Shown piece after piece: positions 6,393 to 46,540 of a DNA stretch of 64,000 bases. A program made the position numbers and the translations under genes. Origin of the DNA: a virus. The DNA lies in IMG/VR virus record IMGVR_UViG_3300029118_000005. One strand, 5' to 3'. The stretch's first letter is position 1. Each line of letters opens with the position of its first letter. Below the pieces are notes generated by a model. It had not been told where the DNA came from. It ran no database searches and worked only from the letters and a program-made list of their open reading frames with translations.

Positions 6393-6408
6393 TTCTTACT
6401 TCCTTTCT

Positions 6409-10237: not shown

Positions 10238-10261
10238 TATAAAAAAGGTAACAATTTTATA

Positions 10262-31316: not shown

Positions 31317-31377
31317 AACACACATATGTACTGTTATTTTGCAATAGTGCATATTGACAAAGAAAGGAAGGGCAAAC

Positions 31378-32283
31378 ATGAATTGGGAAAATTTGCTGAA
31401 AGTGTATGAAAATATGGGTGTTGAGGATATTATCCCAATAGCCCATACAAGAATTTTACCACATATAAAGGTATTGCTCGATGAAAATGGAAATTACATA
31501 GGGGCGATGTTAAACGGTAAAGACCGTTTTACTATTCCGTGCACCATTGAATCTGAATCAAGAACAAGCGGAAACAATCCACATCCGATTCATGACAATA
31601 TGCAATATTTGTCGGCAGACTATAACAAAGAAAAACACGATAAATATATGGAACAATTAGAAGCCTACATTTCTAAAGTAGATGACAAATTGGCAAAATC
31701 AGTATACAGATTTGTTCAAAAAGGATTGATGAGGGATGTTTTACAAGGATTTCTAAAAAAGATTCCTTATCCAGAAGAAAAAACTGTGGTTTGTTTTGTG
31801 ATGGCTCCGCAGGAAGAATTGATAAGAGCAAGTTTTAGTGGGGAATATGAAAAATATTGCCTAAATCTTCTTCGATCAGGAGACGGGCAAAACAAGCAAT
31901 GGAAAGACTATTATCTTAGCAGTTTGGAACCAAATGGAATGTGTAGCATTACAGGAAATAACGATTTTATTCCTGCAACTTATCCGAAGGGTATTAGATT
32001 TGCAGGTGATGGAGCAAAACTTTTTATTGCGTCATCTCGTAATATTATGTTGGAAGGAATGCCGGCCCTTGCACCTGGTTACATAGCGTCGCAAAAAATA
32101 CTGCATACGCTTCAATGCCTATGCTTTGAGGGACCACAATGGGCAAATCAAGTAATGCGTGACAATTTAAAATCTGTTAAAGAAATTGATTTAACAGCAG
32201 ATGAAGAGAAAGTAGTGGAAAGGTATATAAAAAACATACTTAAAGAAAGTAAGACGTGTCAAATAACTCCTGACTGTAAATAA
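31378..32283 (+). CDS. cas8c: Cas8c/Csd1-like protein, N-terminal ~300 aa only (truncated type I-C Cascade large-subunit homolog)
   Basis: Likely start is ATG 31378. Four segments are collinear with Firmicute Csd1 as I recall it: NWENLLKVYEN, IIPIAHT, TIPCTIESESRTSGNNPHPIHDNMQYLSADY, and CSITGN..P..YPKGIRFAGDGAKL...GYIASQKILHTLQCL. The protein ends about 300 aa short of canonical length. Confidence 0.55.
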   Translation: MNWENLLKVYENMGVEDIIPIAHTRILPHIKVLLDENGNYIGAMLNGKDRFTIPCTIESESRTSGNNPHPIHDNMQYLSADYNKEKHDKYMEQLEAYISKVDDKLAKSVYRFVQKGLMRDVLQGFLKKIPYPEEKTVVCFVMAPQEELIRASFSGEYEKYCLNLLRSGDGQNKQWKDYYLSSLEPNGMCSITGNNDFIPATYPKGIRFAGDGAKLFIASSRNIMLEGMPALAPGYIASQKILHTLQCLCFEGPQWANQVMRDNLKSVKEIDLTADEEKVVERYIKNILKESKTCQITPDCK

Positions 32284-32388: not shown

Positions 32389-33297
32389 ATGACTGGTAAA
32401 TATAATATTCAGATAGGCGATGTATTTGGGCAATGGGAAGTAATAGGGCAAGGCAGCAAGCCCTATTACTCAAAGTGTAGATGTACTTGCGGTACGATTA
32501 GAGATGTAAGCAACAGATCTCTTTGCGCTGGTGATTCTAAATCTTGTGGATGCAATAAGGAATACTTAAAAGCCAGACGAAAAGAATCTTCTGTTAAGAC
32601 TGGTGATCGTTTCGGAATGTGGAAGGTGATTGGTGAATCAAGTAGACCGTATTCAGTTCTATGCAAATGTGACTGTGGGACAGTTAGAAACGTATATAGT
32701 CGTATGCTATTAGCAGGTAAATCTAAATCTTGTGGGTGCAATAAGGAGCATGTAAAAACTACCTCTAAAAAAATATCCGAAACCAACTTGAGAATTGCAC
32801 AGAAAAAAGTCGGAACTAGTATCAATGGATTTAAAATTGTAAGTATTTTTAAGAAAAAGGGGGAGAATGTTTTTTATTGCAAAGCTATATGCCCAGTTTG
32901 CGGAAAAGAAACAGAAACCCAGTTGTCCAGATTGAAAAAAAATTATATGTGTGTAAATTGTAACCGTAATAATGGGGACTTTTTGAAAGAAATACAGAAA
33001 AGCTGCTATGTGGATGGTTCTTGCTTGCCAAGCATTAGATCAAGAGAAAATGGAACTGTCAACAAAAATTCTAGTACAAAAGTAAACGGGGTTTCGCTTC
33101 AAAAAGACGGAAGCTATAGAGCATATATAACATTTAGACATAAACAATATCATTTGGGAGTATATGCTAGTCTGGAAGAGGCAGCATCGGCACGCAAAGA
33201 GGCTGAAAAAAAGCTCTTTGGTGAATACATAAAGAGTCATCAGGGATGGGAAGATGAGCTAAAAGAAATCGGAAAGAGACATAGAAAAAAACCATAA
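32389..33297 (+). CDS. AP2-domain DNA-binding protein with repeated zinc-ribbon modules
   Basis: The module W.VIG....Y...C.CGT.R.V....L..G.SKSCGCNKE occurs twice. The C-terminus GVSLQKDGSYRAYITFRHKQYHLGVYASLEEAASAR is an AP2 pattern. Confidence 0.6.
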   Translation: MTGKYNIQIGDVFGQWEVIGQGSKPYYSKCRCTCGTIRDVSNRSLCAGDSKSCGCNKEYLKARRKESSVKTGDRFGMWKVIGESSRPYSVLCKCDCGTVRNVYSRMLLAGKSKSCGCNKEHVKTTSKKISETNLRIAQKKVGTSINGFKIVSIFKKKGENVFYCKAICPVCGKETETQLSRLKKNYMCVNCNRNNGDFLKEIQKSCYVDGSCLPSIRSRENGTVNKNSSTKVNGVSLQKDGSYRAYITFRHKQYHLGVYASLEEAASARKEAEKKLFGEYIKSHQGWEDELKEIGKRHRKKP

Positions 33298-33304
33298 TAA
33301 AAAG

Positions 33305-33337
33305 TAGGGATAGAATCAAATCTATCCCTATTATTTT
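33305..33337 (+). terminator. Rho-independent terminator of the plus-strand island
   Basis: TAGGGATAG-AATCAAAT-CTATCCCTA followed by TTATTTT. Confidence 0.75.
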
Positions 33338-33408
33338 ACAGTTCTTGACAGTATTTTACATTACTTTACATTATTATACATTATTTTACATTAAAATAAT
33401 GTCAAAAT
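33331..33408. repeat. Junction motif copy A: six 10-bp-phased TTTACA-type repeats ending in the palindrome ACATTAAAATAATGT
   Basis: ttattttaca|gttcttgaca|gtattttaca|ttactttaca|ttattataca|ttattttaca|ttaaaataatgtcaaaat. Confidence 0.8.
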
Positions 33409-33567
33409 CTATCGGCTTTTCTTACGGCGCTGCTTCTGCCTCTGCTGTTTGTATTCGGTTCTTATGACTGTGATATTTCCGACAGTTTCCTCAGTTCTGA
33501 TTCGCTTCAAACTGCCAACATAGGTTATTATGCTGATTTCGTGTTTTTTTCCACTTCTACTACCCAT
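33409..33567 (-). CDS. Small basic protein (52 aa)
   Basis: The ATG lies 1 nt after the upstream TGA, with GAGGGG RBS. Sequence is MGSRSGKKHEISIITYVGSLKRIRTEETVGNITVIRTEYKQQRQKQRRKKSR. Confidence 0.4.
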   Translation of the reverse strand: MGSRSGKKHEISIITYVGSLKRIRTEETVGNITVIRTEYKQQRQKQRRKKSR

Positions 33568-33568
33568 A

Positions 33569-34210
33569 TCATCCCCTCAACTTTCTCGTAAGCTGCTGTC
33601 CAAATGATTCTCGATACGTAATTTTTACATCTGTGTCCACATCAATAGGGCGTCCAACGACTAAAATTTCTGTTGGATGGAGCCGGGAACACATTTCTTT
33701 GAAGCCCTGTCGATAACACTCCTTGCCTTGATCGGTAAAGCAGCCGTTTGTGCTGACTGCCAGCGTACTCTCTTCTGGCAGCCCTTCAAAACAAAACTCA
33801 AACGTCTCTGTGCTTCCCCAACCTACAGTTGGGATGGCGTTACAACCGTTCATAAATAGCCACCATGCCAGGGCACGGCTTCTGTACACTTGATGCAGCT
33901 GCATGACCTTTGGCATAGAGTCGTAGAACGAGAAGTCAGGAGCGCAGACATATTTGAAATTTTCAAGCATTGGAAGATACTTTTGCGGTTGATTCCATAA
34001 TGGCTCGAACCGTGCATCATCAATAAAAAAGTGGCAAAGCGCCTTCTTCGGATTTTTTTCTTTCACCGCCTCACAAAATGATACTGCATTAAGCCCACTC
34101 AGAGAAGCGTGTACTGGGAGCAGTTTTGGAAATCCCAGTGGAGTAAGTTCGGATTGATAAAGATATCGCTCACGGAGAACGTCTTTTTGCGTGTGAATCT
34201 TTGTGTACAT
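33569..34210 (-). CDS. DUF4417-like protein
   Basis: Likely start is ATG 34210. The segments HFFIDDARFE..W, APDFSFYDSMP, YRSRALAWW...IPTVGW and FCFEGLP fit the DUF4417 pattern. Confidence 0.5.
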   Translation of the reverse strand: MYTKIHTQKDVLRERYLYQSELTPLGFPKLLPVHASLSGLNAVSFCEAVKEKNPKKALCHFFIDDARFEPLWNQPQKYLPMLENFKYVCAPDFSFYDSMPKVMQLHQVYRSRALAWWLFMNGCNAIPTVGWGSTETFEFCFEGLPEESTLAVSTNGCFTDQGKECYRQGFKEMCSRLHPTEILVVGRPIDVDTDVKITYRESFGQQLTRKLRG

Positions 34211-34265
34211 CTGCCTTCCTTTCTGGCACATTGCCTAAAGTCATGCGTGTACTGTGATCTTTATT

Positions 34266-34604
34266 TTATGCACAGTACCTAGTTGTATTGTTTCCTAAAA
34301 GTTGATATATAAGTTCGTCTGCAACAGTTACTATACTCCTGCCAAAAAGACTTATAAAGTCTGCGACAATTTCCTCTGTTTCAATCGGGATAGAGTATCC
34401 ATATTCCATTGCGTGAACATGTGTTAATTCGTGGCACAGCACTTTATCAATCATCTGGCTTGACAGATCATTACACATAAAGACGGTCTTTAAATTGTTG
34501 TCGGTTACACCGAGAGTATATGTTCCGTCACTGCGCTGCAACTGCGGATCGCCAGGATTGACAAAGCAAACTTGCCAAGTGTTGTTATTTACTGTAAAAA
34601 ACAT
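34266..34604 (-). CDS. Putative zinc metallopeptidase (HExxH)
   Basis: Likely start is ATG 34604. Contains the motif CHELTHVH. Confidence 0.45.
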   Translation of the reverse strand: MFFTVNNNTWQVCFVNPGDPQLQRSDGTYTLGVTDNNLKTVFMCNDLSSQMIDKVLCHELTHVHAMEYGYSIPIETEEIVADFISLFGRSIVTVADELIYQLLGNNTTRYCA

Positions 34605-34688
34605 TTGATACCCCCCATTATAGCACATTTATAGCAAGTGCGCAATTGAAATAAAACCGGGAGCATTTGCTCCCGGCTGTACCATTGA

Positions 34689-35399
34689 TTATATACGCTG
34701 TACCCAGTTTGTCATCTTGGTTTTCATCATTGTTTTTTCGGAAGCTGAAAGCCCTGGCATGATCTCTTTAAGATCTTCGTCAATGACGGCCAGCAAGGAC
34801 TCAAGCCCTCGCATGTTTGCGTCATTGTCTTCTTTGGTGTTAGCTTTGTGCATGTCCTTAGTCTCACTGTATGACCTTCTAGCACGGTCATATCGGCTTT
34901 CTGACTTCATTCCCATATCTTCTACACTTCTACCATCTGACGGCATTTGGGAGCCTCTACGTGGGTCAGAGTAGTACATGCGCCCAAAGCGGAGTCTATC
35001 AAGATCACGCATACGCTCCTCTTCTGGCATGTCAGCCCATTCGTAATACATCTCTGGTGTCATGTGCCAATAAGGTGGCTCGTCATAACCACGTCTACCT
35101 ATGGTTCTTGTACCTCTACCCTTTGGGGCGAATCTGCCGTTAGCATATCTGTAGCGGTCGTAATAGCGTCGTGACGGGTAATCACCGTATTGCTCAACCA
35201 TTTCCATGATTTCGTCATCGTTTTGCAGCTTATCCATTGCCTCAACGATGCGATAATCTTTGTCAAAGCAAGCAATGTTCTTAACAATTTCGGTCCAATC
35301 TTTTAAATCATCAAGATTCTGACCTTCGAAATTATCAATTCCGATAGTTTTGGCTTTTTCTTTGACACATTCCAAAATCTCTTTAGCCCATTTATGCAT
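34689..35399 (-). CDS. R/Y/D-rich low-complexity protein, unknown
   Basis: 236 aa with a central tract RRYYDRYRYANGRFAPKGRGTRTIGRRGYDEPPYW... Confidence 0.45.
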   Translation of the reverse strand: MHKWAKEILECVKEKAKTIGIDNFEGQNLDDLKDWTEIVKNIACFDKDYRIVEAMDKLQNDDEIMEMVEQYGDYPSRRYYDRYRYANGRFAPKGRGTRTIGRRGYDEPPYWHMTPEMYYEWADMPEEERMRDLDRLRFGRMYYSDPRRGSQMPSDGRSVEDMGMKSESRYDRARRSYSETKDMHKANTKEDNDANMRGLESLLAVIDEDLKEIMPGLSASEKTMMKTKMTNWVQRI

Positions 35400-35412
35400 A
35401 GTCTACCTCCAA

Positions 35413-35835
35413 TTAAGCAACTCTATTCACTATAAGGTTTGCATTGGCAACCTCAATAGCAACGCCACTTGTATTCTCAACTGCAATATTTACGCAGCAG
35501 CCACGCGGAACACTGATAAAAATGCCTGAGGACACATTGTTAAATTGAGATACTGCAGCTGGTGTTGAAATCATCTTGGAAGCAGGTACTGGCTCACCAC
35601 TGATAGCAACGGCTAATGATATAGGAGCCGCAGTTCCACCGGCTGGAAGAGCTATATTTGCAGAGAAGTTTACAAAAAAACGTGCCTGACACTGATTCGT
35701 AAGACCTCTAAGAGTAATGATCCCACTGCCTTCGCGGTGCTGTATGCAGTTTGAACCCTTAACAGATGTGTTTGTAAAAGTTATATTTTCATTTGCCGCA
35801 ACTTCCTGTGTTGCGACTGCAACATATTCTGCCAT
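35413..35835 (-). CDS. BclA C-terminal-domain-like (C1q/TNF-like) protein without a collagen region
   Basis: The pattern ...ANIALPAGGTAAPISLAVAISGEPVP...VAIEVANANLIVNRVA resembles the BclA exosporium C-terminal domain, which ends ...IIIEKVA. Confidence 0.45.
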   Translation of the reverse strand: MAEYVAVATQEVAANENITFTNTSVKGSNCIQHREGSGIITLRGLTNQCQARFFVNFSANIALPAGGTAAPISLAVAISGEPVPASKMISTPAAVSQFNNVSSGIFISVPRGCCVNIAVENTSGVAIEVANANLIVNRVA

Positions 35836-35954
35836 TTGATACCTCCTTAAAATAAGGGACAGGCTCTATTTCGAGTCTGCCCCTTTGCTGATAGTAATAC
35901 TGCGTTAGTTAGCAGACATAACCGTTTTGGTTAAGATACCGATATTTAATTTTG

Positions 35955-36746
35955 TCAGCAGTTGCAACCACTATTGCATCCGCATCCGTAAGCATAGCCA
36001 TAGAGATTAGATGCCGGGAAAGACGGTACTGGAGTAGGTCTTACAGCGTCAATAATCTGATTGGTCTGCGCAGCCATTGCTGTGGTGAGCAGTGCACTCT
36101 GGCGATCCTGTGAAGCAGCTCTGCGAAGATCATTGTTCTCAGCCTGCAAGGTGGCAATCTTGTCCTGGCAAAGGTAGTCAAGGATGCTTCTCACACCTGC
36201 ATTTTGGTTGTCAATAATATCTCTGGTGTTGTTGTTCATAGTGTTCTGCAATGCGCAAGTGTTGGTTGCCATATTGTAATTTACACCCTGAATAGCTTCG
36301 CGTGTCTCGCAGCAGCAGTTAGCTAACTGTGCCTGCAGAGCATTTGTATTTTGCATATTAGCTACGGTATCAGCGTTGATAGCCTGCTGAATGCCATATC
36401 CAGTCTGCATGATGTTTGTGTTGATTCCATTAAATCCGGTTAACATGCTATTGTTAACTGCGTAGAATCCATCACAAATACCATTGTTGATTCCGTCTAA
36501 CTTTCCAACGATCGCTTGGTGATCAAAACCACGCTGAATTGCGCTATCTGTGTAGGCTGCCGCGGTAGAACCCATGCCACCACCGTTATTGCCCCAACCG
36601 CCGAAGCCATTACCCCAGCCGAAAATGGCAAAAATCAAAATGATCCAGATCCATCCCCAACCGTCGTTGCCCCAGCCACCGCTGTTGTTGCCGTTACCAT
36701 CAATGCTAGCCACTAATGGTACACTACAGTTTCCTGAGTTAAACAT
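35955..36746 (-). CDS. Membrane protein with G/W-rich N-terminus (YjcZ-like) and Cys-rich C-terminus
   Basis: Likely start is ATG 36746 with GGAGG RBS. Contains GGWGNDGWGWIWIILIFAIFGWGNGFGGWGNNGGG, a Q/N-rich core, and ends YGCGCNSGCNC. Confidence 0.5.
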   Translation of the reverse strand: MFNSGNCSVPLVASIDGNGNNSGGWGNDGWGWIWIILIFAIFGWGNGFGGWGNNGGGMGSTAAAYTDSAIQRGFDHQAIVGKLDGINNGICDGFYAVNNSMLTGFNGINTNIMQTGYGIQQAINADTVANMQNTNALQAQLANCCCETREAIQGVNYNMATNTCALQNTMNNNTRDIIDNQNAGVRSILDYLCQDKIATLQAENNDLRRAASQDRQSALLTTAMAAQTNQIIDAVRPTPVPSFPASNLYGYAYGCGCNSGCNC

Positions 36747-36808
36747 ACTATTTACCTCCGTAATATTTTTTATATACATAATCTTGCGCAAGAATTAGTA
36801 TCATGTTT

Positions 36809-37048
36809 TTATTGCATTCCAAATTGATTTTTTATCTGGCGAACTGCATCATCAACATTTATCCCTTTCTCTTTGCAAAGGTTGCGAGCTAATTGTTCTA
36901 CACCCTTTGTATCACCTTTATTTGCCATATCCATAGCATTTTTTAAAATAGGATTGCTCATAGCTTGGCTGTTTCCAGCCATCTGTTGCAAAAACTGCTG
37001 CGGATTCCTCATGGCTTGAAATAGCTGAAATGGATTATTCATTCTCAT
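36809..37048 (-). CDS. Hypothetical small protein
   Basis: 79-aa ORF, overlapping the upstream gene end. Confidence 0.4.
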   Translation of the reverse strand: MRMNNPFQLFQAMRNPQQFLQQMAGNSQAMSNPILKNAMDMANKGDTKGVEQLARNLCKEKGINVDDAVRQIKNQFGMQ

Positions 37049-37556
37049 TCGCCTCCTTCTTTAAGCCTCCGGACCTTTTAGGCGCTATTTTAGGCATCAG
37101 TTCATCAAACTTCTTTTCAAGGCTATCAAATCTTGCCATAAATGCCTCTGTAGCCTCGTCAGACAGCCCCATTTTCATTTTGGACATGTCAGCTGAACTA
37201 TTCGCCGCATTTGGCTGTGAAGCTGTGTACGGCTTATATACAATCGTTCTAATGGTTCCATCTGCATTCCATGATTTTGTATAGATCTCTGACATGTCTT
37301 GCTTTGGGAATACGGCAACTGAGCCGTCCATAGGTACATCGTTCGCAGTAATTTGTTCGACAGCTTGCACGACCTTTCCGTTCAATCCAGCTTGCTGCTG
37401 TGGCTGAATATTTTGCTGTTGATTAAAAAGCGGTTGGTTTTGCTGCAGATCATAACGCGGCTGCTGATATTGATACGGGTAATAACTATTATATTGGCCA
37501 TACATTGTCTGTTGGTTGTACGGTTGATACATCTGATTTGGTATCGGCATCGTCAA
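37035..37556 (-). CDS. Protein with Q/Y/N-rich prion-like N-terminal domain
   Basis: 18 Q and 9 Y in the first 60 aa. The real start may be ATG 37550 (GGAGTG RBS). Confidence 0.5.
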   Translation of the reverse strand: MTMPIPNQMYQPYNQQTMYGQYNSYYPYQYQQPRYDLQQNQPLFNQQQNIQPQQQAGLNGKVVQAVEQITANDVPMDGSVAVFPKQDMSEIYTKSWNADGTIRTIVYKPYTASQPNAANSSADMSKMKMGLSDEATEAFMARFDSLEKKFDELMPKIAPKRSGGLKKEANENE

Positions 37557-37683
37557 TTATCACTCCTTCCTCGTCAAGGACCTCTCCAATAGCTTGAATC
37601 ATTGCTGATTGATACTGCATTGGAATCATACATACATCTGGTCTTTCAAATATTTTAGTCAAAAATGATTCGGGAAACATCAT
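37489..37683 (-). CDS. Hypothetical small protein
   Basis: 64-aa ORF, first in the cassette after the terminator at 37766-37799. Its 3' end overlaps the next gene. Confidence 0.35.
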   Translation of the reverse strand: MMFPESFLTKIFERPDVCMIPMQYQSAMIQAIGEVLDEEGVIIDDADTKSDVSTVQPTDNVWPI

Positions 37684-37765
37684 TCACACCTTCCTTCCTC
37701 TTATTCTGACTGTATTGTGCCATAAAAATAAGATGTAAAAACGACAGGGATACGACATATTAACG

Positions 37766-37799
37766 ACAAAAAGAGCTGCCAGATAAACTGACAACTCTT
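37766..37799 (-). terminator. Rho-independent terminator of the cas8e-like/HTH operon
   Basis: Minus-strand RNA reads AAGAGUUGUCAG-UUUAU-CUGGCAGCUCUU (12 bp including 2 G-U pairs) followed by UUUG. Confidence 0.7.
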
Positions 37800-37809
37800 T
37801 CAAAGAATA

Positions 37810-37875
37810 TTTTACTGTAAATAAATGTCAAATATTGTTAAATAAAGTTAAATAATGTAAAGAAATGTAAAATAC
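37810..37875. repeat. Junction motif copy B (inverted orientation), lying in the 3' UTR between the HTH stop and the terminator
   Basis: TTTTACTGTAAATAAATGTCAAAT ... AATAATGTAAAGAAATGTAAAATAC. Confidence 0.75.
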
Positions 37876-37879
37876 ACTA

Positions 37880-38113
37880 TTACAACATCTGCAATTCCTC
37901 TCCGGTGTCCTTTGATGTGAGTTTGATAGAAACGTCATATCCTAATGCTTCGGATATCTGGCGTATATCACTTTCTCTAAAATTATTTAATCTAAGCTTT
38001 TTGGACACGTTAGATTGAGAGCACCCTAACAGTTTTGCAAGCTGAACTCCGTCCATCTCTTTCTTAAACATTATTGTTTTTACAATGTTCGAAAATGTGT
38101 TTTTGCTTTCCAT
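37880..38113 (-). CDS. XRE-type HTH protein (aca-like position)
   Basis: The ATG abuts the TAA of the cas8e-like gene, and the RBS GGAGGAAGG lies inside that gene. The HTH is GVQLAKLLGCSQSNVSKKL. Confidence 0.65.
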   Translation of the reverse strand: MESKNTFSNIVKTIMFKKEMDGVQLAKLLGCSQSNVSKKLRLNNFRESDIRQISEALGYDVSIKLTSKDTGEELQML

Positions 38114-39673
38114 TTACTCACCTTCCTCCTTCGGTTTAAGATCTGCCTTGTAAGAGCTTAAATGTTCTTCTATAGTTTCAAGACTATTGGATTCCTCTGG
38201 AATCAATCGGTTGAGATAATATAAAAAAGAATTATAAGCCTTTGCTGTGCAATAATACTTTTCCTTGCCATTCACCGTAACTATTCGACCTCTAAATGAT
38301 GTCGGGGATGCATTATCAATTAAAGATTTAGAAAAGTCCAGTGCAGACTGCTTGACCATTCTTAGAAAATATTCAAATGCGGTGGCGCTTGATGAAAGAA
38401 ATCTGGACCAAATCAAATCTAGGTTACTAGAAAACTCATATTTTTTAAGTTCAGTCGGATTCTGCTTGCCACTAGCCATCTGAATATTGTAGGATAATAC
38501 ACCAATTTCATTTGTAATATAACGGCATAGTTCAATGGCAACAGATATGTAATCTGCAAAGTTAGGATCGAGATTCGCTGTAAATCTTTTTGAACATTCA
38601 TCGACAAACTTCATTGCCTTAGAGTCATACATCATTCCACAAGTTTGAAAGCCTGCGTTGCTAATTCCGATTAAGCGCAACCATGTAACAGTGTCTTGAT
38701 TGCTGTAAAGTATCTTGTCGAGTAGTTGCCACAATGGAACATCGTTAAATAAGCGAAGTGGTTTAGCACTGTTACTATTTAAAATGTAAAGTGCCATGGT
38801 TTCAGCTACAACACGTTCTTTATCAAAAAACTCCCCACCCAATGCATTAAATCCGGTTATGACCCCATTTTCACGCTTGAGAAATATCCTGCGCGATTGG
38901 TGCGTGAATAATTCCGCTGGGTTAGAAGGTGGATCAATCTTTTTGCGCTCATCGGATCGTGGCGAGCATTCCCATATTGGGCAAGGCTTAGGCCACAATT
39001 CTCCATTACCATTCTGTAAAGGAACTAGGTTCATCATAAGTGTTTCAAAAAGATTTCGCCCGATTGCGTAAACAATAGTATTTTGCCCCAACCATCCAAT
39101 ACTGATTGAAGGCAAGCCTGTCCTACTTGGCTTTACAGAAACATCGTCATACCCGTTGATAAAAAGAAGCCATCTAGCCGCTTCTGCATATGTTAGTTGC
39201 ATTTTTGCTTCTCCACTTCTTGCTGCAAAAATTCGTACCTTGTTGTTGCTTTCAGAAATTTCTCCGTTTAACTTTGCAGCACCAAAAGCAGTTCCTTTTT
39301 TAGCTTCGTTTGCCTGATAGAATGGAGCATCAGGATGAAAAAGCCAGAAACGTTCTCTGTATTCTTCTAAATATTTTAAAAACGTTTCTGGAAAATGACC
39401 GAGACTCCAATAACTTTTCCAACGGCTGATTGCTTCATCCCTGTTTGAAAGTGGAATTTCATCACCGTTTGAGTCGAATCTTGCGAATCCAGAATGAGCA
39501 ATTGCAAGAAGTAGCCGTATCATTGCGACATTTTGAGTATCTGTTTCACCTGCCAAATCCATGTATTCATGACTGCGGGCGAAAACTTCTTTAAGTGAAA
39601 CTTCTTTAATAGTATAATTTGGAAGCAATACACGCACCCAGTTTTCATCAAGCAAATTAAATTCTTTCTTCAT
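38114..39673 (-). CDS. cas8e: Cas8e/Cse1 (CasA)-like protein, full length, orphan
   Basis: Six segments are collinear with E. coli and T. thermophilus CasA as I recall them: FNLLDENWVRV, VAMIRLLLAIAH, GHFPETFLKYLEEYRERFWLFHPDAPFYQ, LTYAEAARWLLF, GRNLFETLMMNLVP and CPIWE. 519 aa. Confidence 0.75.
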   Translation of the reverse strand: MKKEFNLLDENWVRVLLPNYTIKEVSLKEVFARSHEYMDLAGETDTQNVAMIRLLLAIAHSGFARFDSNGDEIPLSNRDEAISRWKSYWSLGHFPETFLKYLEEYRERFWLFHPDAPFYQANEAKKGTAFGAAKLNGEISESNNKVRIFAARSGEAKMQLTYAEAARWLLFINGYDDVSVKPSRTGLPSISIGWLGQNTIVYAIGRNLFETLMMNLVPLQNGNGELWPKPCPIWECSPRSDERKKIDPPSNPAELFTHQSRRIFLKRENGVITGFNALGGEFFDKERVVAETMALYILNSNSAKPLRLFNDVPLWQLLDKILYSNQDTVTWLRLIGISNAGFQTCGMMYDSKAMKFVDECSKRFTANLDPNFADYISVAIELCRYITNEIGVLSYNIQMASGKQNPTELKKYEFSSNLDLIWSRFLSSSATAFEYFLRMVKQSALDFSKSLIDNASPTSFRGRIVTVNGKEKYYCTAKAYNSFLYYLNRLIPEESNSLETIEEHLSSYKADLKPKEEGE

Positions 39674-39689
39674 ATATATCCTTCTTTCT

Positions 39690-39718
39690 ACAGTTCTTTA
39701 CATTAAAATAATGTCAAA
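39690..39718. promoter_or_regulatory. Junction motif copy C: operator/promoter element upstream of the cas8e-like gene
   Basis: ACAGTTCTTTACATTAAAATAATGTCAAA. The palindrome ACATTAAAATAATGT lies at 39700-39714. The reverse strand carries TTGACA. Confidence 0.6.
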
Positions 39719-39723
39719 TAAGG

Positions 39724-41178
39724 TTAAATACTGTTATTTACTAATATATATATTTCTTGCAATGCGTAATCTATATTTATACGGCTCAAATATCCGATTT
39801 TTGCATTCCAATCTTGAGCCTGTGCAATCATGGCATAATACAGTTTGTGGCTCAGGTGAGCAGTTACGAAGAACACAAAGTCAGATTTTTTTAATGCAGC
39901 GTTGCGCACAGTGCTGACATTTCCTGCACTGATATATTGCCAATCCGGAAGATAAGTTTTAAGCTTCTTTATCAAGTTTGGATACCCTCCAACAATTGTA
40001 CCACTAATGTTTTTTAATTGCTGAATTTGCTCTTTAGATAGCTTATTTGCAATTTCGGTTTCCGAATCAGATTCCAGTGAAAACATATGCTCTCGTAAAG
40101 CATAAAGCTCCCTACGTTCACCCTCTACCTTTTGCAGTTCGGATTTTAGTGCATCATTCTTCTGCTTGAGTAGATTTATCTCATCAGATAAGCGCTGAAC
40201 CTGCTCAGTACAAGCTTTTTGTTCAGACATCCTGCGTTCCTGAGATTCAGATAATGCAGATTTGGCTTGAAGCAATTCATTTTTAATGCTCTCTACTTCA
40301 ATATACACGTCTTCACGATTGTGTTGGAAGTAGTATTCTTTAGACTGCTTATATGCCTTACACATAGCTAATATATAGCTCGTATATTTTGCATAAGTCA
40401 GGAAATCCTCACGTATTCCTCCTCTTTTTCCGTGCGTATAAGCAATTGCTAGTGCTTCCAGATCTTCATGTGTGAACTGTAATTCAGAAAAAATAGAAAC
40501 GCTTGAAAGTGACTCAATGTCAAACACGGTAGTGTATCCAAATTCCTCATCTTTTGGTGCTAACTGGATCTGCTTAAATAAATCTTTTGGAAGTTGACTA
40601 ATGTATGATTTTGCTCTTTCCTGAAAAGCACAGTCATATTTCTTTAAGCCTTTTTGTATTCTGCGTTCTGGATTGTATCCGTAGTTTGCAATAAAGCAAA
40701 GTAATTCATCACATTTTTTACGTTCTTGCACTAACTCTTGCGGCCACATATTTAAAAAGTAATAGCCTGCAAATAAATGGCCATTAAAATTATCGTCCGA
40801 AACATGATCTGACTTTGCAAGCTTTGCATAAATGACTTCTCCGATTACACTATCAAAATGAAGCGGTTCGTCTTTTGGAAGCCTTTTAAAAATGTTGTAT
40901 AGCTTTCTGTATCCCTTTTTGAAAAGAATATCCAAAGAAGTCTGTGCTTGTTCATCTTCTGTGTAGCTATATTCGACGATTCCGAGTGCTTTTTTATAAG
41001 CTTCTTCTGTTTGCAAAGACAGCTCTTCCGAAAATAAAGTATTGTAATATTCGCTCTGCTTTGCAGCATTATAATAAGCTACAGCATTCTTGCCATATTC
41101 GCTTTCTAAATCTAATCGTATATGGCGTGCAAACGCGATAGCGCAAGCGTAAAACGGTATCAAGTTTACTTGCTCCAT
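39724..41178 (-). CDS. Coiled-coil protein with C-terminal DUF2325-like domain
   Basis: 484 aa with GGAGG RBS. The central coiled coil is followed by a C-terminus GTIVGGYPNLIKKLK...SDFVFFVTAHLSHKLYY...KIGYL that fits the DUF2325 pattern. Confidence 0.5.
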   Translation of the reverse strand: MEQVNLIPFYACAIAFARHIRLDLESEYGKNAVAYYNAAKQSEYYNTLFSEELSLQTEEAYKKALGIVEYSYTEDEQAQTSLDILFKKGYRKLYNIFKRLPKDEPLHFDSVIGEVIYAKLAKSDHVSDDNFNGHLFAGYYFLNMWPQELVQERKKCDELLCFIANYGYNPERRIQKGLKKYDCAFQERAKSYISQLPKDLFKQIQLAPKDEEFGYTTVFDIESLSSVSIFSELQFTHEDLEALAIAYTHGKRGGIREDFLTYAKYTSYILAMCKAYKQSKEYYFQHNREDVYIEVESIKNELLQAKSALSESQERRMSEQKACTEQVQRLSDEINLLKQKNDALKSELQKVEGERRELYALREHMFSLESDSETEIANKLSKEQIQQLKNISGTIVGGYPNLIKKLKTYLPDWQYISAGNVSTVRNAALKKSDFVFFVTAHLSHKLYYAMIAQAQDWNAKIGYLSRINIDYALQEIYILVNNSI

Positions 41179-41227
41179 AAAATGCCTCCTTTCTTTAATT
41201 TTAGTAAAGAATTATCTTGTGATAAAA

Positions 41228-41728
41228 TTACCAAAATTTTATTTTTTGATTACGTAAATAGGATCTATTTTTTGATTTATTATAAATCTCATAATGCGTT
41301 AAATACATTGCAAAATCATCGTTCCATGCCTTTTCTAATTTGACCTTATATTCCGTAATATGCCCAGACTTATATATTCGTATCGCGTGATATCTGCCGT
41401 ATGTATCGCCGCTATCTGTATGCCATATGAATAAATCTACATATCCATTGTAATAATCTTTTTTAACTTGTTTGTACATGTTACAGCATAATTCAGTTGT
41501 TGGCAAATCAAATTTGTCAATGTAATTAAATGCCATTGTAAACTCGCCACTCGCAAACACAGTTAATGCTGATACAATATCAATTGTTTTCATATTATTA
41601 GCGGATAGTAAACGCCGTAATGATTCTGCAATATTACAATTCCGTTCATATATCACATCGTCAAGTTTTCCTTCTGCAATAGCATTTTTAACACTAACTA
41701 TTCTTTCATAAATCTCATTACTTACCAT
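41228..41728 (-). CDS. Hypothetical protein
   Basis: 166-aa ORF with AAGGAGG RBS. First gene of its cassette. Confidence 0.5.
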   Translation of the reverse strand: MVSNEIYERIVSVKNAIAEGKLDDVIYERNCNIAESLRRLLSANNMKTIDIVSALTVFASGEFTMAFNYIDKFDLPTTELCCNMYKQVKKDYYNGYVDLFIWHTDSGDTYGRYHAIRIYKSGHITEYKVKLEKAWNDDFAMYLTHYEIYNKSKNRSYLRNQKIKFW

Positions 41729-41757
41729 AATAAAATCCTCCTTTTAACAATTTTTAA

Positions 41758-41807
41758 CAGTTCTTTACATTATTAACCCTTTTTTAAATGTCAAATAATG
41801 TAAAGAA
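41758..41807. repeat. Junction motif copy D: perfect 12-bp inverted repeat TTCTTTACATTA - N23 - TAATGTAAAGAA
   Basis: The arms lie at 41761-41772 and 41796-41807. Preceded by ACAG, as in copy C. Confidence 0.8.
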
Positions 41808-42176
41808 TTATAGATCATGTGTCCGCATGTATTCCTCGATGGCAAAGCAAGCAAATCCTGCTAGGGTGCGGCCTGACTTACGAGCGGCTTCTGAAAAGGC
41901 TGCCTTTTGCGATTCAGTACACGATACACTGAACTGAATCTTACGCTCAGCTGCAGGGACTTCTCTGCGCCCTACATACCCACCATTTGGACCAATCTTT
42001 GGAGTTGGGTTATATCCAGGCGTATACACTCTGTTTGGATCAACTGGAGCGGAGACAAATACTGATTTTTTTTCCACCGGCTGGATGCTTGGAATTTCAG
42101 TTTCGCCAGTATCTGCAAAATCAATGCCGGCTGTCACATCAAAAGAAGTGGTGGTGGTGTTATCTTTCTTTCTCAT
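41808..42176 (-). CDS. Ribbon-helix-helix DNA-binding protein (HicB-C-terminal / ParG-like)
   Basis: The C-terminus KIQFSVSCTESQKAAFSEAARKSGRTLAGFACFAIEEYMR is an RHH pattern. Confidence 0.5.
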   Translation of the reverse strand: MRKKDNTTTTSFDVTAGIDFADTGETEIPSIQPVEKKSVFVSAPVDPNRVYTPGYNPTPKIGPNGGYVGRREVPAAERKIQFSVSCTESQKAAFSEAARKSGRTLAGFACFAIEEYMRTHDL

Positions 42177-42189
42177 ATCAAATTACTCC

Positions 42190-42318
42190 TTAATAAGTCA
42201 ATGTTTCTTCCAGTCTAGTTTCCTCTACTGGAGTTGCGTCTGGAAAATCTACGAACTCCAAATGGTAGCAATTGCCACAGTTTTTTAATGTGGCTGGATA
42301 AAAGTATCTTTTTTCCAT
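42190..42318 (-). CDS. HicB N-terminal-like fragment (42 aa)
   Basis: MEKRYFYPATLKNCGNCYHLEFVDFPDATPVEETRLEETLTY resembles the HicB N-terminus (YSYPA...Y.V.FPD..G..T.G.TLEEA). GGAAAGAGGA RBS. The stop overlaps the RBS of the RHH gene. Confidence 0.35.
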   Translation of the reverse strand: MEKRYFYPATLKNCGNCYHLEFVDFPDATPVEETRLEETLTY

Positions 42319-42393
42319 AAATCCTCTTTCCACGCCCTGTTAGACGCTTTTTTATTTGCCTTGCTGAGATTTTTTATAATCTTTCGGTCACAA

Positions 42394-42720
42394 TCACAAC
42401 CAGCAGGCAAAACCCGCCTTCCGAAGGTACTTTTCTCTATCCATTCGGAAATCCCTTCGTGGCAGGTTCTTATTTATGCTTTCTAAGTATGCCTTACGAC
42501 AAGCGTCTGTCGTGAGTTTCTTTGATAGATAGTCGTAGCAAAGACCCCACCCATCAAAAAAAACATTGACACTTTCGAGAGCCGCTATAACCTCGGACTC
42601 TGTTTCTGCACCCTTGCTTGCGGCAATTATCTCGTCGCAAGTTTTGGTGTACTTGTCATGCTCTCGGTACTCCTCAAACACATTTACAGTAAAAGCATCT
42701 TCTCTCATAACAAACCTCAT
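42394..42720 (-). CDS. Hypothetical protein downstream of parA
   Basis: 108-aa ORF. Confidence 0.4.
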   Translation of the reverse strand: MRFVMREDAFTVNVFEEYREHDKYTKTCDEIIAASKGAETESEVIAALESVNVFFDGWGLCYDYLSKKLTTDACRKAYLESINKNLPRRDFRMDREKYLRKAGFACWL

Positions 42721-42818
42721 TTCTCCCCGTTTTGGCGATAGGACACCAGTTATTATTATTTGTTTTGCGTTGTGGCTATAACCACGTTTCCGCCAATAAA
42801 AGATATATTTAATATCCC

Positions 42819-43586
42819 TTATTGGCAGAATCTAAGTAGTTCTTTTGTGAACTGCATATAGTCAATGGCAGCGTTACACTTTGAATCAAATTTCATGAGA
42901 GTTGTTCTGGTTGCCTGTGCCTTTTGTACAGCAATGCTTTCACGAATAGTTGTGCAAAAAACCTTTGTGTTGAGCTGCTTGGCAATTTCTTCTAAAGAAT
43001 TTTTAACTTCCTGAGCGAGGAGTTGACGGCTCTTATATTTTACTAGTAAGAGTCCTGCAACCTCTAGGTTAGGATTATTTCTTTTCTTTACGCCTGTGAT
43101 GGTTCTGTTAAGTTCTGAGAGGCCTTGAATAGCATAACGGTCTGCAGTGACAGGAATGATGACTTTGTTAGAAGCAATTAAACAGTTTTTAAGCAATTTG
43201 TTGTCAGCCGGAGCTGTATCAATAATAACATAGTCATAGCCAGTTAATTCAGCAAGAGCATCTTTTAGTCTAAAATACTCGTTCCCGTCACTTGGGAATC
43301 TTTGATCTGCTGTTTTCAGCTCTGGATCGGATGCGACTATGTCACCGATTTCTGTTTTTTGAATAGCTTCCGCAATTGGAAGTGGATCTTCAATGTCTAA
43401 AATAACATCGTAGAGAGTTGCCGTATCTTTGGATACTGCTCTATAAGTATCAGTGCTGTTACCCTGCGGATCAGCGTCAACCAGTAAGACCTTCTTGCCT
43501 TGCGACATTAAAATTGACGCAAGTGTAGTGGCTGTTGTGGTTTTTGCAATGCCGCCTTTTTGATTTGCAATGCATATTACTTTCAT
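42819..43586 (-). CDS. parA: ParA/Soj-family partition ATPase
   Basis: Deviant Walker A (IANQKGGIAKTTT) and LLVDADPQGN. 255 aa with AAGGAGG RBS. Confidence 0.85.
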   Translation of the reverse strand: MKVICIANQKGGIAKTTTATTLASILMSQGKKVLLVDADPQGNSTDTYRAVSKDTATLYDVILDIEDPLPIAEAIQKTEIGDIVASDPELKTADQRFPSDGNEYFRLKDALAELTGYDYVIIDTAPADNKLLKNCLIASNKVIIPVTADRYAIQGLSELNRTITGVKKRNNPNLEVAGLLLVKYKSRQLLAQEVKNSLEEIAKQLNTKVFCTTIRESIAVQKAQATRTTLMKFDSKCNAAIDYMQFTKELLRFCQ

Positions 43587-43600
43587 TGTGAAACCTCCTT

Positions 43601-43672
43601 TGTGATTACATTATTCTACATTATTTTACAATTCTTAACCCAATTTGACATTTCTTTACAGTAAAATAATGT
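43601..43672. repeat. Junction motif copy E: 10-bp-phased TTTACA-type array upstream of parA
   Basis: tgtgattaca|ttattctaca|ttattttaca|attcttaacc|caatttgaca|tttctttaca|gtaaaataatg. Collinear with copy A. Confidence 0.8.
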
Positions 43673-43701
43673 TTTTTCCTTTCTCAGTTATAGCATACAT
43701 T

Positions 43702-43738
43702 GTTAGAACTAAAAAGTCAATAGTTAGAACTAAAAAGT
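43702..43738. repeat. Two 16-bp direct repeats GTTAGAACTAAAAAGT (21-bp period)
   Basis: Read directly from the sequence, between motif copies E and F. Confidence 0.85.
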
Positions 43739-43766
43739 TATAAAAAATATCTTTAAGGTTATACGT

Positions 43767-43795
43767 GTGACATTTCTTTACAGTAAAATAATGTT
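43767..43795. repeat. Junction motif copy F (GTGACATTTCTTTACAGTAAAATAATGTT)
   Basis: 28 of 29 nt identical to 43648-43676 in copy E. Confidence 0.8.
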
Positions 43796-43805
43796 AAAAA
43801 ATGTT

Positions 43806-43840
43806 GTAAAAATCCCCTAGCATCATAAATACCAGGGGAC
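43806..43840 (-). terminator. Putative terminator after 43844..44041
   Basis: Minus-strand RNA reads GUCCCCUGG-loop-CUAGGGGAU followed by UUUUACAACAUUUUUU. Confidence 0.5.
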
Positions 43841-43843
43841 TAT

Positions 43844-44041
43844 TTATAGTTGGTTGATTTTTGATTTTATATCGGCAATCCTGCGATCAACCGTCCTAGT
43901 CGACACAGATAACCGGGTTGCTATTTCGCTGATAGATTTGCCTTTAGATAACATATCAAATGTTATCTCTTCATCGTCCGTGAAATTACTTCTAAGTTTG
44001 TAATCATCAAGCTTAGACTGGGTAAGTTTGTGTAATTTCAC
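43844..44041 (-). CDS. Small HTH protein (sigma-70 region-4 / LuxR-like)
   Basis: GKSISEIATRLSVSTRTVDRRIADIKSKI. Confidence 0.55.
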   Translation of the reverse strand: MKLHKLTQSKLDDYKLRSNFTDDEEITFDMLSKGKSISEIATRLSVSTRTVDRRIADIKSKINQL

Positions 44042-44049
44042 GGATCACA

Positions 44050-45993
44050 TCATGACTCCTTGATTGTTAGCTCTTTAGAATCAGTTCTTTTGAGAACAAT
44101 AAGCTGCCTGTCTATATCTGGTATTTTCCAGCCATCAACAGACTCCGAGTCATCTACGATGATAGGAAGGGTAGTAGCGTATTTCTTCTGAAAAGCCTTA
44201 CAAACATCTGTCTCGATTAAGATTTTTGCACCGTGATTAAGGTTTCTAGCGTATGGTTCACCGTTTACACAGAAATCACACGTTTCTTCTAGGTCGCCAT
44301 TCACAAGCTGCCTGAAAAATTTTACTTGGCAGTACTCTAAATACTCGTTTACTTTACTTTCCAGAAGCTCATGCTTGCGGATATTGAAGCGTTTCAGCAA
44401 GTCGAGTTGTGCCTGTGTATCTGCAATTAGCTGCTCATTCTTTCGGCGCTCGATGTTAAGCTCTGCAACTCTTGCGTCAATCTTGACATTGATTTCGGTT
44501 TTTGCAAGCTCTGCTTTTAAGCCTGATAACTGATGCTGAAGATTATTTTCTTCTGCCTTGAGCTGTGCAAACGTTGCATTTGCAGTATTTGCTTCTAACT
44601 GGCTTTCAAGCTTTACGATTTCTGCAGATCTGGTTTTTGCTGTCTCGTCTGGCTCTGCTGGAGGTGCAGTGGATATAACTTTTTTCTGAGCAACTAAATC
44701 ATCGACAACTCTTGACTTTTTATTGGATTCTTCACGAAGGGTAGAAAGCTCTGCATCTGCAGCATTGAACTTTTCGCGTAAAGCATCAATAGCTTCTTTA
44801 CATTTCATTCCATCGTCTGTGATTTCCTGCAACTTTTCTTCCTTTGATTCTTCAAAATGCTTTCGCATTTCATCCTGCTGATCAGATGGGTATTCACGCT
44901 TGCAATACGGGCAAATCAGCAAATTTTCATCAAATTGCATATCTTTATTGCTTTTCCAGTCACTTGAAAGCTTCAAACGCTTAGTTTCAAGATCCCGAAT
45001 CTCGGAGTCAATCTGGTGCAATTCATGCTCTTTGGCATTTAAACTACTGTTGGATAGGAAAAGTTCTTCCCTTGCTGCCATAATCTGAGCATCTAAATCG
45101 GCAATTCTTTTCCTGTTTTCGGCATTAGCGTCATCAGTGGCTTTTAATTGCTCCTGCTTCAACTTATAAATTTGTGCCTGAATTGTACGTTGCTCATCAA
45201 ATGCCTTCTGCACATCAGCTTGTTTACTCTGGTTATCTTTCAGTCTGCTTTCAATATCTGTAATCTGGCTGTTTATCAAGGCTTCATCAATGACAATTTT
45301 CTGCTTTTCCACCTCATCAATGCGGCTTGGAAACTCTTTGCGAATATCAAGCAGTCCTTTAGTGCCATTCCTTCCGCGTCTGCCATTCAGCATAGTGTTG
45401 AATTTTGACTTCAATTCATCAACACTGCCATCATCCAACAATGGGAGAAGAGGGGAGAACTCTGGAAAACGTTCACAAACCTCTGCATTGGAACACGTTC
45501 CAAAGGTGGATTCCAAGATTGATCTGCAGTCGGCGGCACTCTTTGACAAGAGCGTTTTGGCGTTGATCAAGTTAGAAAGTTCGCTCACAGGAACCAATTT
45601 TTCTGCAATAAAATCTTCATAGTCACACTTCTTTTTAGGGATATTATTGATATAATAGTCAATAACATTACCCGTGAAGTCACCCTTTTTATTGTAGTTC
45701 TGACGAGAGACCTTTTTAAATGTCTTGCTGGAACCGTTAAGCTCTACGGTCATCTCGACTGTAACCTCAATATCGTTAATCTCGTTACCTGATTTATCAT
45801 GTGGCCTGATTCCGGTAATTTCTTCGCCGTTCTCACCCCTACAATTCAGTACCCAAAAAATAGCCCTCTTAACTGTGCTTTTTCCAGATTCATTACATCC
45901 AGATACCTCTGTCTTATTGTATAAATCTGTGTCTACAGTTTTCCCATTGTAAAAGCTGCAAAAATTATCTAACTTCAAATGCTTAATTCTCAT
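44050..45993 (-). CDS. Rad50/SbcC-like SMC-family ATPase with CxxC zinc hook
   Basis: Likely start is ATG 45993 (MRIKHLKLDNF). Walker A is GCNESGKST. A long coiled coil carries a central CPYC, and Walker B is LPIIVDDSES. Confidence 0.7.
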   Translation of the reverse strand: MRIKHLKLDNFCSFYNGKTVDTDLYNKTEVSGCNESGKSTVKRAIFWVLNCRGENGEEITGIRPHDKSGNEINDIEVTVEMTVELNGSSKTFKKVSRQNYNKKGDFTGNVIDYYINNIPKKKCDYEDFIAEKLVPVSELSNLINAKTLLSKSAADCRSILESTFGTCSNAEVCERFPEFSPLLPLLDDGSVDELKSKFNTMLNGRRGRNGTKGLLDIRKEFPSRIDEVEKQKIVIDEALINSQITDIESRLKDNQSKQADVQKAFDEQRTIQAQIYKLKQEQLKATDDANAENRKRIADLDAQIMAAREELFLSNSSLNAKEHELHQIDSEIRDLETKRLKLSSDWKSNKDMQFDENLLICPYCKREYPSDQQDEMRKHFEESKEEKLQEITDDGMKCKEAIDALREKFNAADAELSTLREESNKKSRVVDDLVAQKKVISTAPPAEPDETAKTRSAEIVKLESQLEANTANATFAQLKAEENNLQHQLSGLKAELAKTEINVKIDARVAELNIERRKNEQLIADTQAQLDLLKRFNIRKHELLESKVNEYLEYCQVKFFRQLVNGDLEETCDFCVNGEPYARNLNHGAKILIETDVCKAFQKKYATTLPIIVDDSESVDGWKIPDIDRQLIVLKRTDSKELTIKES

Positions 45994-46116
45994 CGTTTCC
46001 CCTCTTTCCTTCGTCATCGGTTTCATTTGCGCTTGATGCAGCACACAAAGCAACTGCAAGCACACCAGTAATTCCGCCGAATAATAGTCCTGCTATTAAA
46101 CCAATTAAAAAATCCA
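45982..46116 (-). CDS. Small TM protein (44 aa)
   Basis: MDFLIGLIAGLLFGGITGVLAVALCAASSANETDDEGKRGNDEN. The end overlaps the ATPase start. Below the ORF-track cutoff. Confidence 0.3.
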
Positions 46117-46118
46117 TA

Positions 46119-46526: not shown

Positions 46527-46540
46527 CTGCGCACTCCTTC

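Follow-up and report, generated by a model that had tools for sequence, protein, structure and literature searches.

The stretch of DNA analysed here (the window) comprises 64 kb of the virus record IMGVR_UViG_3300029118_000005 from IMG/VR. The elements under study, at 33,331-43,795, are arrays of a 10-bp unit that lie in and beside an operon encoding a small Walker-type ParA, a ribbon-helix-helix (RHH) protein and a helix-turn-helix (HTH) protein. They are probably the centromere/operator iterons of a type Ib-like partition system, with the RHH protein as the putative binder. Tailed-phage genes (major head protein, portal, terminase and endolysin-like protein) are encoded in the same window.

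The whole gene run from 33409 to 47068 is on the minus strand. Read along that strand, a terminator (43813-43839) is followed by site F, the par promoter candidate, array E, parA, a 634-bp insertion, the RHH gene and array D. After D come a 166-amino-acid (aa) gene, a 484-aa gene, array C, a Cas8e-like gene, the 77-aa HTH gene, array B and a second terminator (37772-37798). Array A is placed 4.4 kb beyond the array-B end of the par operon, after the last gene of the next block. Coordinates are collected in Table 1.

Table 1. Arrays, genes and signals discussed in the text, by position in the window (ORF, open reading frame)
Feature	Position	Strand	Description
Rep_3 plasmid initiator	10324-11499	plus	22-bp iterons directly upstream
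Array A	33334-33406	minus	one inverted unit (TTTTGACATTA), TTT, six direct units
Single core palindrome TTTACTGTAAA	34588-34598		candidate solitary operator
Array B	37811-37872	plus	six direct units, orientation opposite to A and E
HTH protein, 77 aa	37880-38113	minus	weak Pfam HTH matches
Cas8e/Cse1 homologue, 519 aa	38114-39673	minus	cargo in par operon; Pfam Cse1 7.7e-70; PADLOC Cas8e 5e-68
Array C	39686-39738		three inverted units, TTT, two direct units
Cargo genes, 484 aa and 166 aa	39724-41728	minus	variable among relatives
Array D	41743-41807		two inverted units, 12-bp spacer, three direct units
ParB-like RHH candidate, 122 aa	41808-42176	minus	centromere-binding protein candidate
634-bp insertion with 108-aa ORF (42394-42720)	42199-42832	minus	between parA and RHH gene
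ParA, 255 aa	42819-43586	minus	Pfam AAA_31 1.2e-46, CbiA, ParA; PHROG ParA-like
Array E	43604-43676	minus	one inverted unit, TTT, six direct units (one degenerate)
par promoter candidate	43720-43692	minus	TTGACT-N17-TATGCT; region 43692-43736
Site F	43766-43798		partial copy of E: core palindrome and flanking units

The original prediction, made from the sequence of this region, reported six copies of a 9-mer, TTCTTTACA/TGTAAAGAA. Nine copies were counted in the window against 1.28 expected, and none of 100 shuffles reached nine. The six copies at the sites (one each in B, C, E and F and two in D) stood; beyond them the prediction had listed only the copy at 6405, and two more were found, at 12802 and 44794. 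None of these three solitary 9-mers belongs to an array. The 9-mer falls within a 10-bp unit, wAmTGTnAAr, which reads TAATGTAAAG, for instance, when the sites are viewed on the minus strand. All 17 spacings between neighbouring units on the same strand were 10 or 20 bp. Arrays A, B and E each contain about six direct units in exact 10-bp register and C and D are of inverted-plus-direct type. The conserved core is the reverse complement (RC) of a unit, three thymines and a unit, that is RC(U)-TTT-U with U approximating TAATGTAAAr, and further units are added in the 10-bp register.

Several structural claims made earlier held up on inspection. The 10-bp phasing described for A and E was exact and applies equally to B. 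The perfect 12-bp inverted repeat ascribed to D was located at 41761-41772 and 41796-41807, and 28 of the 29 nucleotides said to be duplicated between E and F were identical. Array A had been placed between convergent genes; it begins 2 nt past the stop codon of a 52-aa ORF and runs to a bidirectional terminator at 33305-33330. Array B had been placed ahead of a terminator and was found between the HTH stop codon (37880) and the hairpin at 37772-37798.

The core palindrome TTTACWGTAAA occurs five times in the window, where 0.07 copies would be expected. Two of the five are single copies beyond the arrays, at 34588 and 42683. The 64 kb were scanned with a position weight matrix of the unit, and arrays were returned at five intergenic places only, which hold the six sites A-F. 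The matrix was built from the same sites that it scores and is circular, so independent support is taken from the enrichment of the 9-mer, the enrichment of the core palindrome and the related replicons.

Close relatives were represented by 66 IMG/VR contigs, many of them 85-92 kb long, in which the RHH protein is 92-100% identical. All five array places are kept in 66 of 66, and no extra arrays were present within 10 kb on either side. Wherever an array differs in length among the relatives, it does so by entire units: A by 10 or 20 bp, E by 10 bp and C by 20 bp, most relatives having two extra units in C. Matches to an exact array 19-mer in the contigs of this family, up to 92 kb long, all fell at B, C, D or E/F (120 of 120). 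Across IMG/VR the same 19-mer was confined to the family, apart from ten matches that were single chance hits without arrays. A search of GTDB genomes for a four-unit phased pattern returned 120 unrelated tandem repeats or chromosomal A/T-rich stretches, none homologous to the window. Phage and plasmid records were also searched for similar DNA; the sole match was MT839398, a 4.3-kb unannotated fragment that was informative only for the 634-bp insertion.

Array E, with seven units, occupies the interval between the par promoter candidate and the parA ribosome-binding site, which is the position of type Ib centromere/operators, and it is the candidate for the primary centromere/operator. Upstream of parA, E and the promoter boxes are nearly invariant in the relatives, save for a 10-bp unit deletion in E, and the spacer DNA between them varies. 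Two exact copies of TTTTTAGTTCTAAC (43702-43715 and 43723-43736), 21 bp apart, bracket the par -35 box. These form a distinct operator-like element, unique in the window and invariant in the 66 relatives, each copy holding ACT-N4-AGT; they may be the operator of the HTH protein itself. Site F is upstream of the par promoter, just past the terminator hairpin of the preceding operon.

The other arrays are equally close to gene ends and starts. Array D starts immediately after the RHH stop codon. Its left part, through GTAAAGAACT, is invariant in all relatives and the sequence downstream is variable. Array C abuts the ribosome-binding site of the Cas8e-like gene and overlaps the final codons of the 484-aa gene. 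Array A is kept in the relatives, with the indels given above. The solitary palindrome at 34588 lies at codons 2-5 of a 120-aa ORF, just 3' of a putative extended -10 promoter read from the sequence (TTGCGC-N17-TGcTATAAT, 34645-34617, minus strand); the one at 42683-42693 is contained in codons 6-9 of the 108-aa ORF.

The Walker A motif of ParA (residues 10-16) is of the deviant form, KGGIAKT, and the protein has no N-terminal HTH; its Pfam match is full-length and no extra domain was found. It is 53-69% identical to the plasmid ParAs described below. For the RHH protein, AlphaFold2 predicted a strand-helix-helix fold at residues 78-122 (predicted local distance difference test score, pLDDT, ~90) and disorder at residues 1-75 (MRKKD...). 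The top Foldseek matches for this domain were Arc and CopG (probability 0.98-0.99), then NikA, KacA and AtaR. No match was obtained with the RHH protein against PDB sequences at E<=10, no Pfam domain is on record for its family, and tblastn against PLSDB gave no match. The gene contains an A7/A8 homopolymer (window about 42065-42075). Six protein clusters (P0016-P0021) are frameshifted there and yield 67-aa products without the RHH domain, as in the relative L178, which has A6; the ParB-like protein is either phase-variable or the frameshifts are artefacts of assembly.

Distant homologues of the RHH protein (27-53% identity) were collected by an exhaustive HMMER and profile search; two of them, P0022 and P0025, gave no match as queries against IMG/VR. 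In every homologous locus with upstream sequence a ParA gene, either complete or truncated where the contig stops, immediately precedes the RHH gene. The two genes are adjacent in 62 of the 66 phage relatives and in all plasmid loci, where their stop and start codons frequently overlap; in the window the 634-bp insertion separates them. The parA-RHH-HTH module was present in more than 20 metagenomic contigs, and those with enough flank are mobilisable gut plasmids. The longer contigs encode Mob_Pre or MobA relaxases, type IV coupling proteins, ArdC and restriction-modification genes, which identifies them as mobilisable plasmids. In the homologous loci ParA is 254-255 aa wherever complete, with the RHH homologue directly next. 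Every plasmid-type locus of sufficient length has, next after the RHH gene, a gene for a 73- to 82-aa HTH protein homologous to the 77-aa HTH of the window (identity 54% in L301, 31% in L299 and 29% in L300). PDB sequence searches with both HTH proteins gave nothing or generic HTH matches only. Because the HTH gene follows the RHH gene in plasmids, the ancestral module appears to have been parA-RHH-HTH, with the 77-aa HTH as its third gene and the phage cargo lodged between RHH and HTH.

The cis element is present in the plasmid modules as well. A core of TTTTAnATTA-TTT-TAATnTAAAA with flanking units in 10-bp phase stands between the par promoter and the ribosome-binding site of parA and recurs upstream of the HTH gene, and the arrangement RC(U)-TTT-U is common to the plasmids and to sites A, C and E of the window. 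L300 carries TTTACATTAAAATAATGT, with TTTTTTACATTAAAATAATGT ahead of parA and TTTTACATTAAAATAATGT ahead of the HTH gene. L299, L303, L307 and L309 carry TTTTACATTATTTTAAtTTAAAATAATGTAAAA and have the 33-bp sequence TTTTACATTATTTTAAwTTAAAATAATGTAAAA 5' of the HTH gene. The plasmid counterpart of array D is a palindrome of ~33 bp between the RHH and HTH genes, and that of array B is the palindrome repeated in L299 after the HTH-gene terminator. All plasmid modules with upstream DNA have a TTGATT-N17-TATAAT or TATATT promoter. Their units, direct and inverted in 10-bp register, start within or just after this promoter and extend to the parA ribosome-binding site; the layout of array E recurs in more than 15 plasmid modules. 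Since the same cis element is found in plasmid par modules, and so in unrelated replicons, the arrays travel with the par module and not with the phage cassettes.

Other features were noted in the plasmids. L301, the HTH of which is phage-like, has ACTAATTAGT upstream of the par promoter and the other plasmids have TTACGCA boxes. Defence or anti-defence cargo follows the gene trio directly or within ~2.5 kb in several of L299-L304 and L306: Vsr, a methylase and HpaII in L304; a methylase and HaeIII in L303; a methylase, EcoO109I and Vsr in L300; type I HsdR in L306; and an AcrVA2-like gene and MmeI in L299. The small plasmid HTH might act like a restriction-modification controller protein. Upstream of plasmid parA is a long non-coding region (L299 7965-9233, L300 7387-9233, L301 3177-3722) with a conserved stretch (…cgccaaa.ccgaaaagc…) and a strong terminator, gcgccaacagcgc plus a T-run. 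This region is absent from the phage and may be a plasmid origin or a regulatory RNA.

A second phage lineage, represented by L305 and L308, has no HTH in the module. Paired sites occur there after the RHH gene and at an A-like position. Their motif is lineage-specific, and the RHH strand differs at three DNA-facing positions.

The earlier proposals of an operator for a local RHH or HTH protein and of a dispersed partition centromere are compatible and both fit these data, the arrays being cis elements of the parA-RHH-HTH module. At the level of sequence the operon has each feature of a type Ib system, namely a small ParA without HTH, a parB gene downstream, an RHH prediction for its product and repeats upstream. 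The most probable reading is that the RHH protein binds the arrays. It is favoured by the predicted fold, the place of this protein as the invariable partner of ParA and the likeness of the arrays to those of omega, ParG, pCXC100 ParB and ParR; the HTH is the weaker candidate. Each unit would take up one RHH dimer, and cooperative binding would cover one face of the helix along every array. On array E this coat would both repress the par operon and form the partition complex, in which the disordered, basic N-terminus (MRKKD...) would stimulate the ParA ATPase and lead to segregation of the phage-plasmid. The module would in that case stabilise the replicon. Sites F, D, C, B and A and the two single palindromes would be extra loading sites or operators bracketing the operon. 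The inserted cargo and the neighbouring block could come under the RHH protein in this way, as several promoters of pSM19035 come under omega.

Several observations weigh against this assignment. The RHH protein matches Pfam RHH_5 with E=1.3e-3, below the family threshold, and the Foldseek E-values were ~0.5-1, the domain being small. The centre-to-centre distance of the core half-sites, 13 bp, exceeds that of most RHH operators. Array A and the 34588 palindrome are 4-10 kb from parA, outside the described type Ib layouts. The HTH accompanies the motif in all plasmid modules, and the comparative data leave it as a possible binder. Its absence from the modules of L305 and L308 is seen in short contigs, and an HTH could be encoded elsewhere in those genomes. 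Covariation did not discriminate either. Among the plasmid modules, whether the variable position of the unit is G, C or T goes neither with the residues of the RHH strand nor with the HTH recognition helix, and the close relatives of the RHH protein, all at least 78% identical, are too alike to show covariation of protein and motif.

The alternative that follows from the last points is that the arrays are operators of the 77-aa Xre-type HTH, which would regulate the par operon and its cargo, the RHH protein binding another site. We consider this unlikely. The constant company of HTH gene and motif in the plasmids agrees with it, as do the palindrome directly 5' of the HTH gene, expected of an autoregulated Xre-type repressor, and the palindromic cores of 23 to 33 bp, which would suit HTH dimers. 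However, one core, TTTACATTA...TAATGTAAA, is common to the window, L299, L300 and L303, although the HTH recognition helix is SQSNVSKKLR in the window and SSTTMYSKFR in these plasmids. Long 10-bp direct repeats with indels of whole units typify RHH centromere-binding proteins and not Xre dimers, and L305 and L308 keep their paired sites without an HTH in the module. The repeats that overlap the promoters (TTTTTAGTTCTAAC in two copies, ACTAATTAGT and TTACGCA) differ by HTH type and could, as a weak inference, serve the HTH in place of the arrays. Finally, the partner of ParA would be left without a visible centromere.

The genes between the arrays are variable. Fusion of D and C has removed both the 166-aa and the 484-aa gene in 4 of the 66 relatives. 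Eight lack only the 166-aa gene, and 11 have another cassette in its place, one with the 108-aa ORF in 9 and a different one after D in 2. Breakpoints in D fall directly after TAATAAkGTAAAGAACT, where D and C have 20 identical bases in common. Of the 66 relatives, 62 have no 634-bp segment separating parA from the RHH gene. The 108-aa cassette was seen in two alternative positions: the parA/RHH gap in the window and four relatives, and 3' of D in nine (L009 10419-10861). No other cas genes were found near the Cas8e homologue, for which roles as an anti-CRISPR decoy or as an exapted DNA-binding protein are conceivable. It is present also in the divergent L305 lineage (513 aa) and is replaced or degraded in L006, L015 and L019. 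A fragment of a second lone Cas large subunit (309 aa, plus strand) was noted at 31354-32283, matching the N-terminal 213 positions of Cas_Csd1 (Cas8c) with E=1.4e-18.

Variation was also seen beyond the operon. An extra segment of ~975 bp is present at 36808/36809 in most relatives and a 2-kb insertion at 35844/35847 in four, neither with an array. The gene block at 33.4-37.7 kb is otherwise conserved and was found in the L305 lineage too. An HNH endonuclease gene (32389-33297, plus strand) adjoining array A is missing from many relatives, in which homology stops at 33298 or, as in L005 and L060, 32408-33294 is precisely deleted; it behaves like a mobile homing-endonuclease gene.

One extension of the centromere/operator reading, which we put forward as rather doubtful, is that the par operon is a regulated landing pad. 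The arrays would then provide both the homologies for cargo swaps and the operators that tie the cargo to the plasmid-prophage state. If this were true, a single centromere-binding protein would govern segregation, its own production and a shifting complement of defence or anti-defence genes; the cargo would comprise the lone Cas8e homologue, the 484-, 166- and 108-aa genes and the restriction-modification systems of the plasmids, and array A and the 34588 operator would extend the regulon to the conserved neighbouring block.

That the arrays are primarily recombination sites exchanging cassettes, in the manner of an integron or shufflon, is very unlikely. The original prediction had raised recombination boundaries as one role, and the part of it that survives is the position of breakpoints inside D and C after their shared 20 bp, together with the deletion, replacement and fusion of cassettes among relatives. 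It had also placed the motif at every cassette boundary, which is not the case: no array is present at 42198/42833, 41189/41190, 38126/38130, 36808/36809 or 35844/35847, so that at least five other variable junctions are array-free, and new cassettes bring no new arrays. The 108-aa cassette, at an array in some genomes, is away from any in the window. No integrase or recombinase was found among the 20 proteins encoded between 32.4 and 46.5 kb, in or beside the region, and integron-like sites would need a dedicated recombinase and one site per cassette. The plasmids have the same sites at fixed par positions without the cassettes. Short-homology exchange between repeats accounts for the D/C events, and recombination does take place at the arrays, probably as a by-product. 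As for the arrays delimiting cassettes, the history is likely the reverse of that proposed. Cargo entered an operon that already carried the sites, and through its insertion between the RHH and HTH genes the ancestral sites now likely resemble cassette borders.

Protein-independent explanations, in which the units act as -35-like hexamers (TTGACA/TTTACA) or phased A-tracts in promoters, UP elements or curved DNA, are highly improbable. The units do resemble -35 hexamers, a promoter scan gives many overlapping matches in the arrays, and A3-4 tracts every 10 bp should bend DNA. But no -10 box is found at proper spacing, and C, D and E run up against ribosome-binding sites, so that a transcript start would not fit in between. 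A and B are at operon 3' ends, arrays occur in both orientations, and the most conserved positions are the TGT, which is not an A-tract. The plasmid modules, moreover, have a separate good promoter upstream of the arrays.

Two further candidates were discarded. A role at the RNA level was rejected, the arrays lying in both orientations relative to transcription and Rfam giving nothing credible on the region. Promoters of the sporulation-sigma or TcdR type were dropped, there being no consistent -10 and the sites abutting ribosome-binding sites or lying at 3' ends. The idea that the arrays are replication-origin iterons, prompted by the Rep_3 initiator in the window and the iteron-binding habit of such proteins, is effectively refuted, as Rep_3 has its own 22-bp iterons, from which the arrays differ in location (22-33 kb away), in period (10 bp) and in travelling with parA and the RHH gene.

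The Rep_3 iterons, GTAACCAAGAAATTCCACATGA, are present in four to five copies at 10150-10254 and once more at 9974, and a 12-bp repeat, TCTTGATTACTC, occurs five times at 10046-10105. Because the Rep_3 initiator with its iteron origin is combined with parA, a plasmid-prophage lifestyle is likely. A widespread uncultivated human-gut phage of ~90 kb, with 66 related IMG/VR contigs, can thereby be recognised as a likely phage-plasmid. Its partition cassette is complete and common to mobilisable gut plasmids, and accessory genes, solitary Cas8 homologues among them, reside and turn over inside its par operon. The cis sites now defined for this ParA/RHH/HTH family are probes for work on binding and stability. 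The value is in annotation and in a model system and not in a new principle.

Known type Ib systems use RHH proteins to bind the centromere, an array of direct or inverted repeats that precedes parA, and these proteins also act as repressors of the operon (PMC3074162). The nearest parallel in working is the delta/omega system of pSM19035, where six parS sites, each with 7-10 repeats of mixed orientation, lie at three promoters and at least four contiguous repeats are needed to activate ParA (PMC9499535). Arrays A, B and E, with six to seven units, are above that number. As there, ParA is Soj-like and its partner is a small RHH ParB with a flexible N-terminus, and several separate arrays of short non-palindromic repeats in mixed orientation are placed at promoters; one protein, as we infer here, would be both centromere binder and global repressor. 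The differences are also clear. The pSM19035 unit is the 7-bp WATCACW and not the 10-bp wAmTGTnAAr, and the RHH protein is longer than omega (122 aa), with no Pfam Omega_Repress or PDB sequence match. The system described here also has a third, HTH gene and two arrays at operon 3' ends, and the replicon is a tailed phage. By analogy the arrays resemble omega sites in how they would work, and the module is not a member of the omega/Inc18 family.

TP228 ParF/ParG-parH and pCXC100 ParA/ParB likewise combine a small Walker ParA without HTH, then parB, with an RHH centromere-binding protein. Their upstream centromere/operators of 70-100 bp consist of short degenerate repeats with A/T-rich spacers bound by cooperative dimers (PMC3130281, PMC3074162). 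Each has a single upstream site, of nine uninterrupted 9-bp direct repeats in pCXC100 and of 4-bp boxes in parH, whereas six sites over 10.5 kb with a 10-bp period and a palindromic core are found here.

According to Ravin & Lane (1999) and Grigoriev & Lobocka (2001), both cited in PMC5016525, N15 is a plasmid prophage with a ParA-type sopAB system and centromere sites scattered in its genome. It is likewise a phage-plasmid with dispersed sites, but its system is type Ia, with a large HTH ParB (SopB), single inverted repeats and a proteobacterial host, and the sites here are arrays of 10-bp units. In type II ParR/parC systems (pSK41, R1, pB171) an RHH dimer is bound to each ~10-11-bp repeat; the repeats are strung out in phase over long stretches across the par promoter or beside it, and in pB171 sites are present on both sides of the par operon. 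The type II motor is the actin-like ParM, in contrast to the Walker-type ParA here. RHH folds have been described for the ParR proteins of pSK41 and pB171 (cited in PMC3074162). RHH arrays as centromere/operator are textbook type Ib biology, and the elements of this phage are most likely a known kind of element belonging to an undescribed family.

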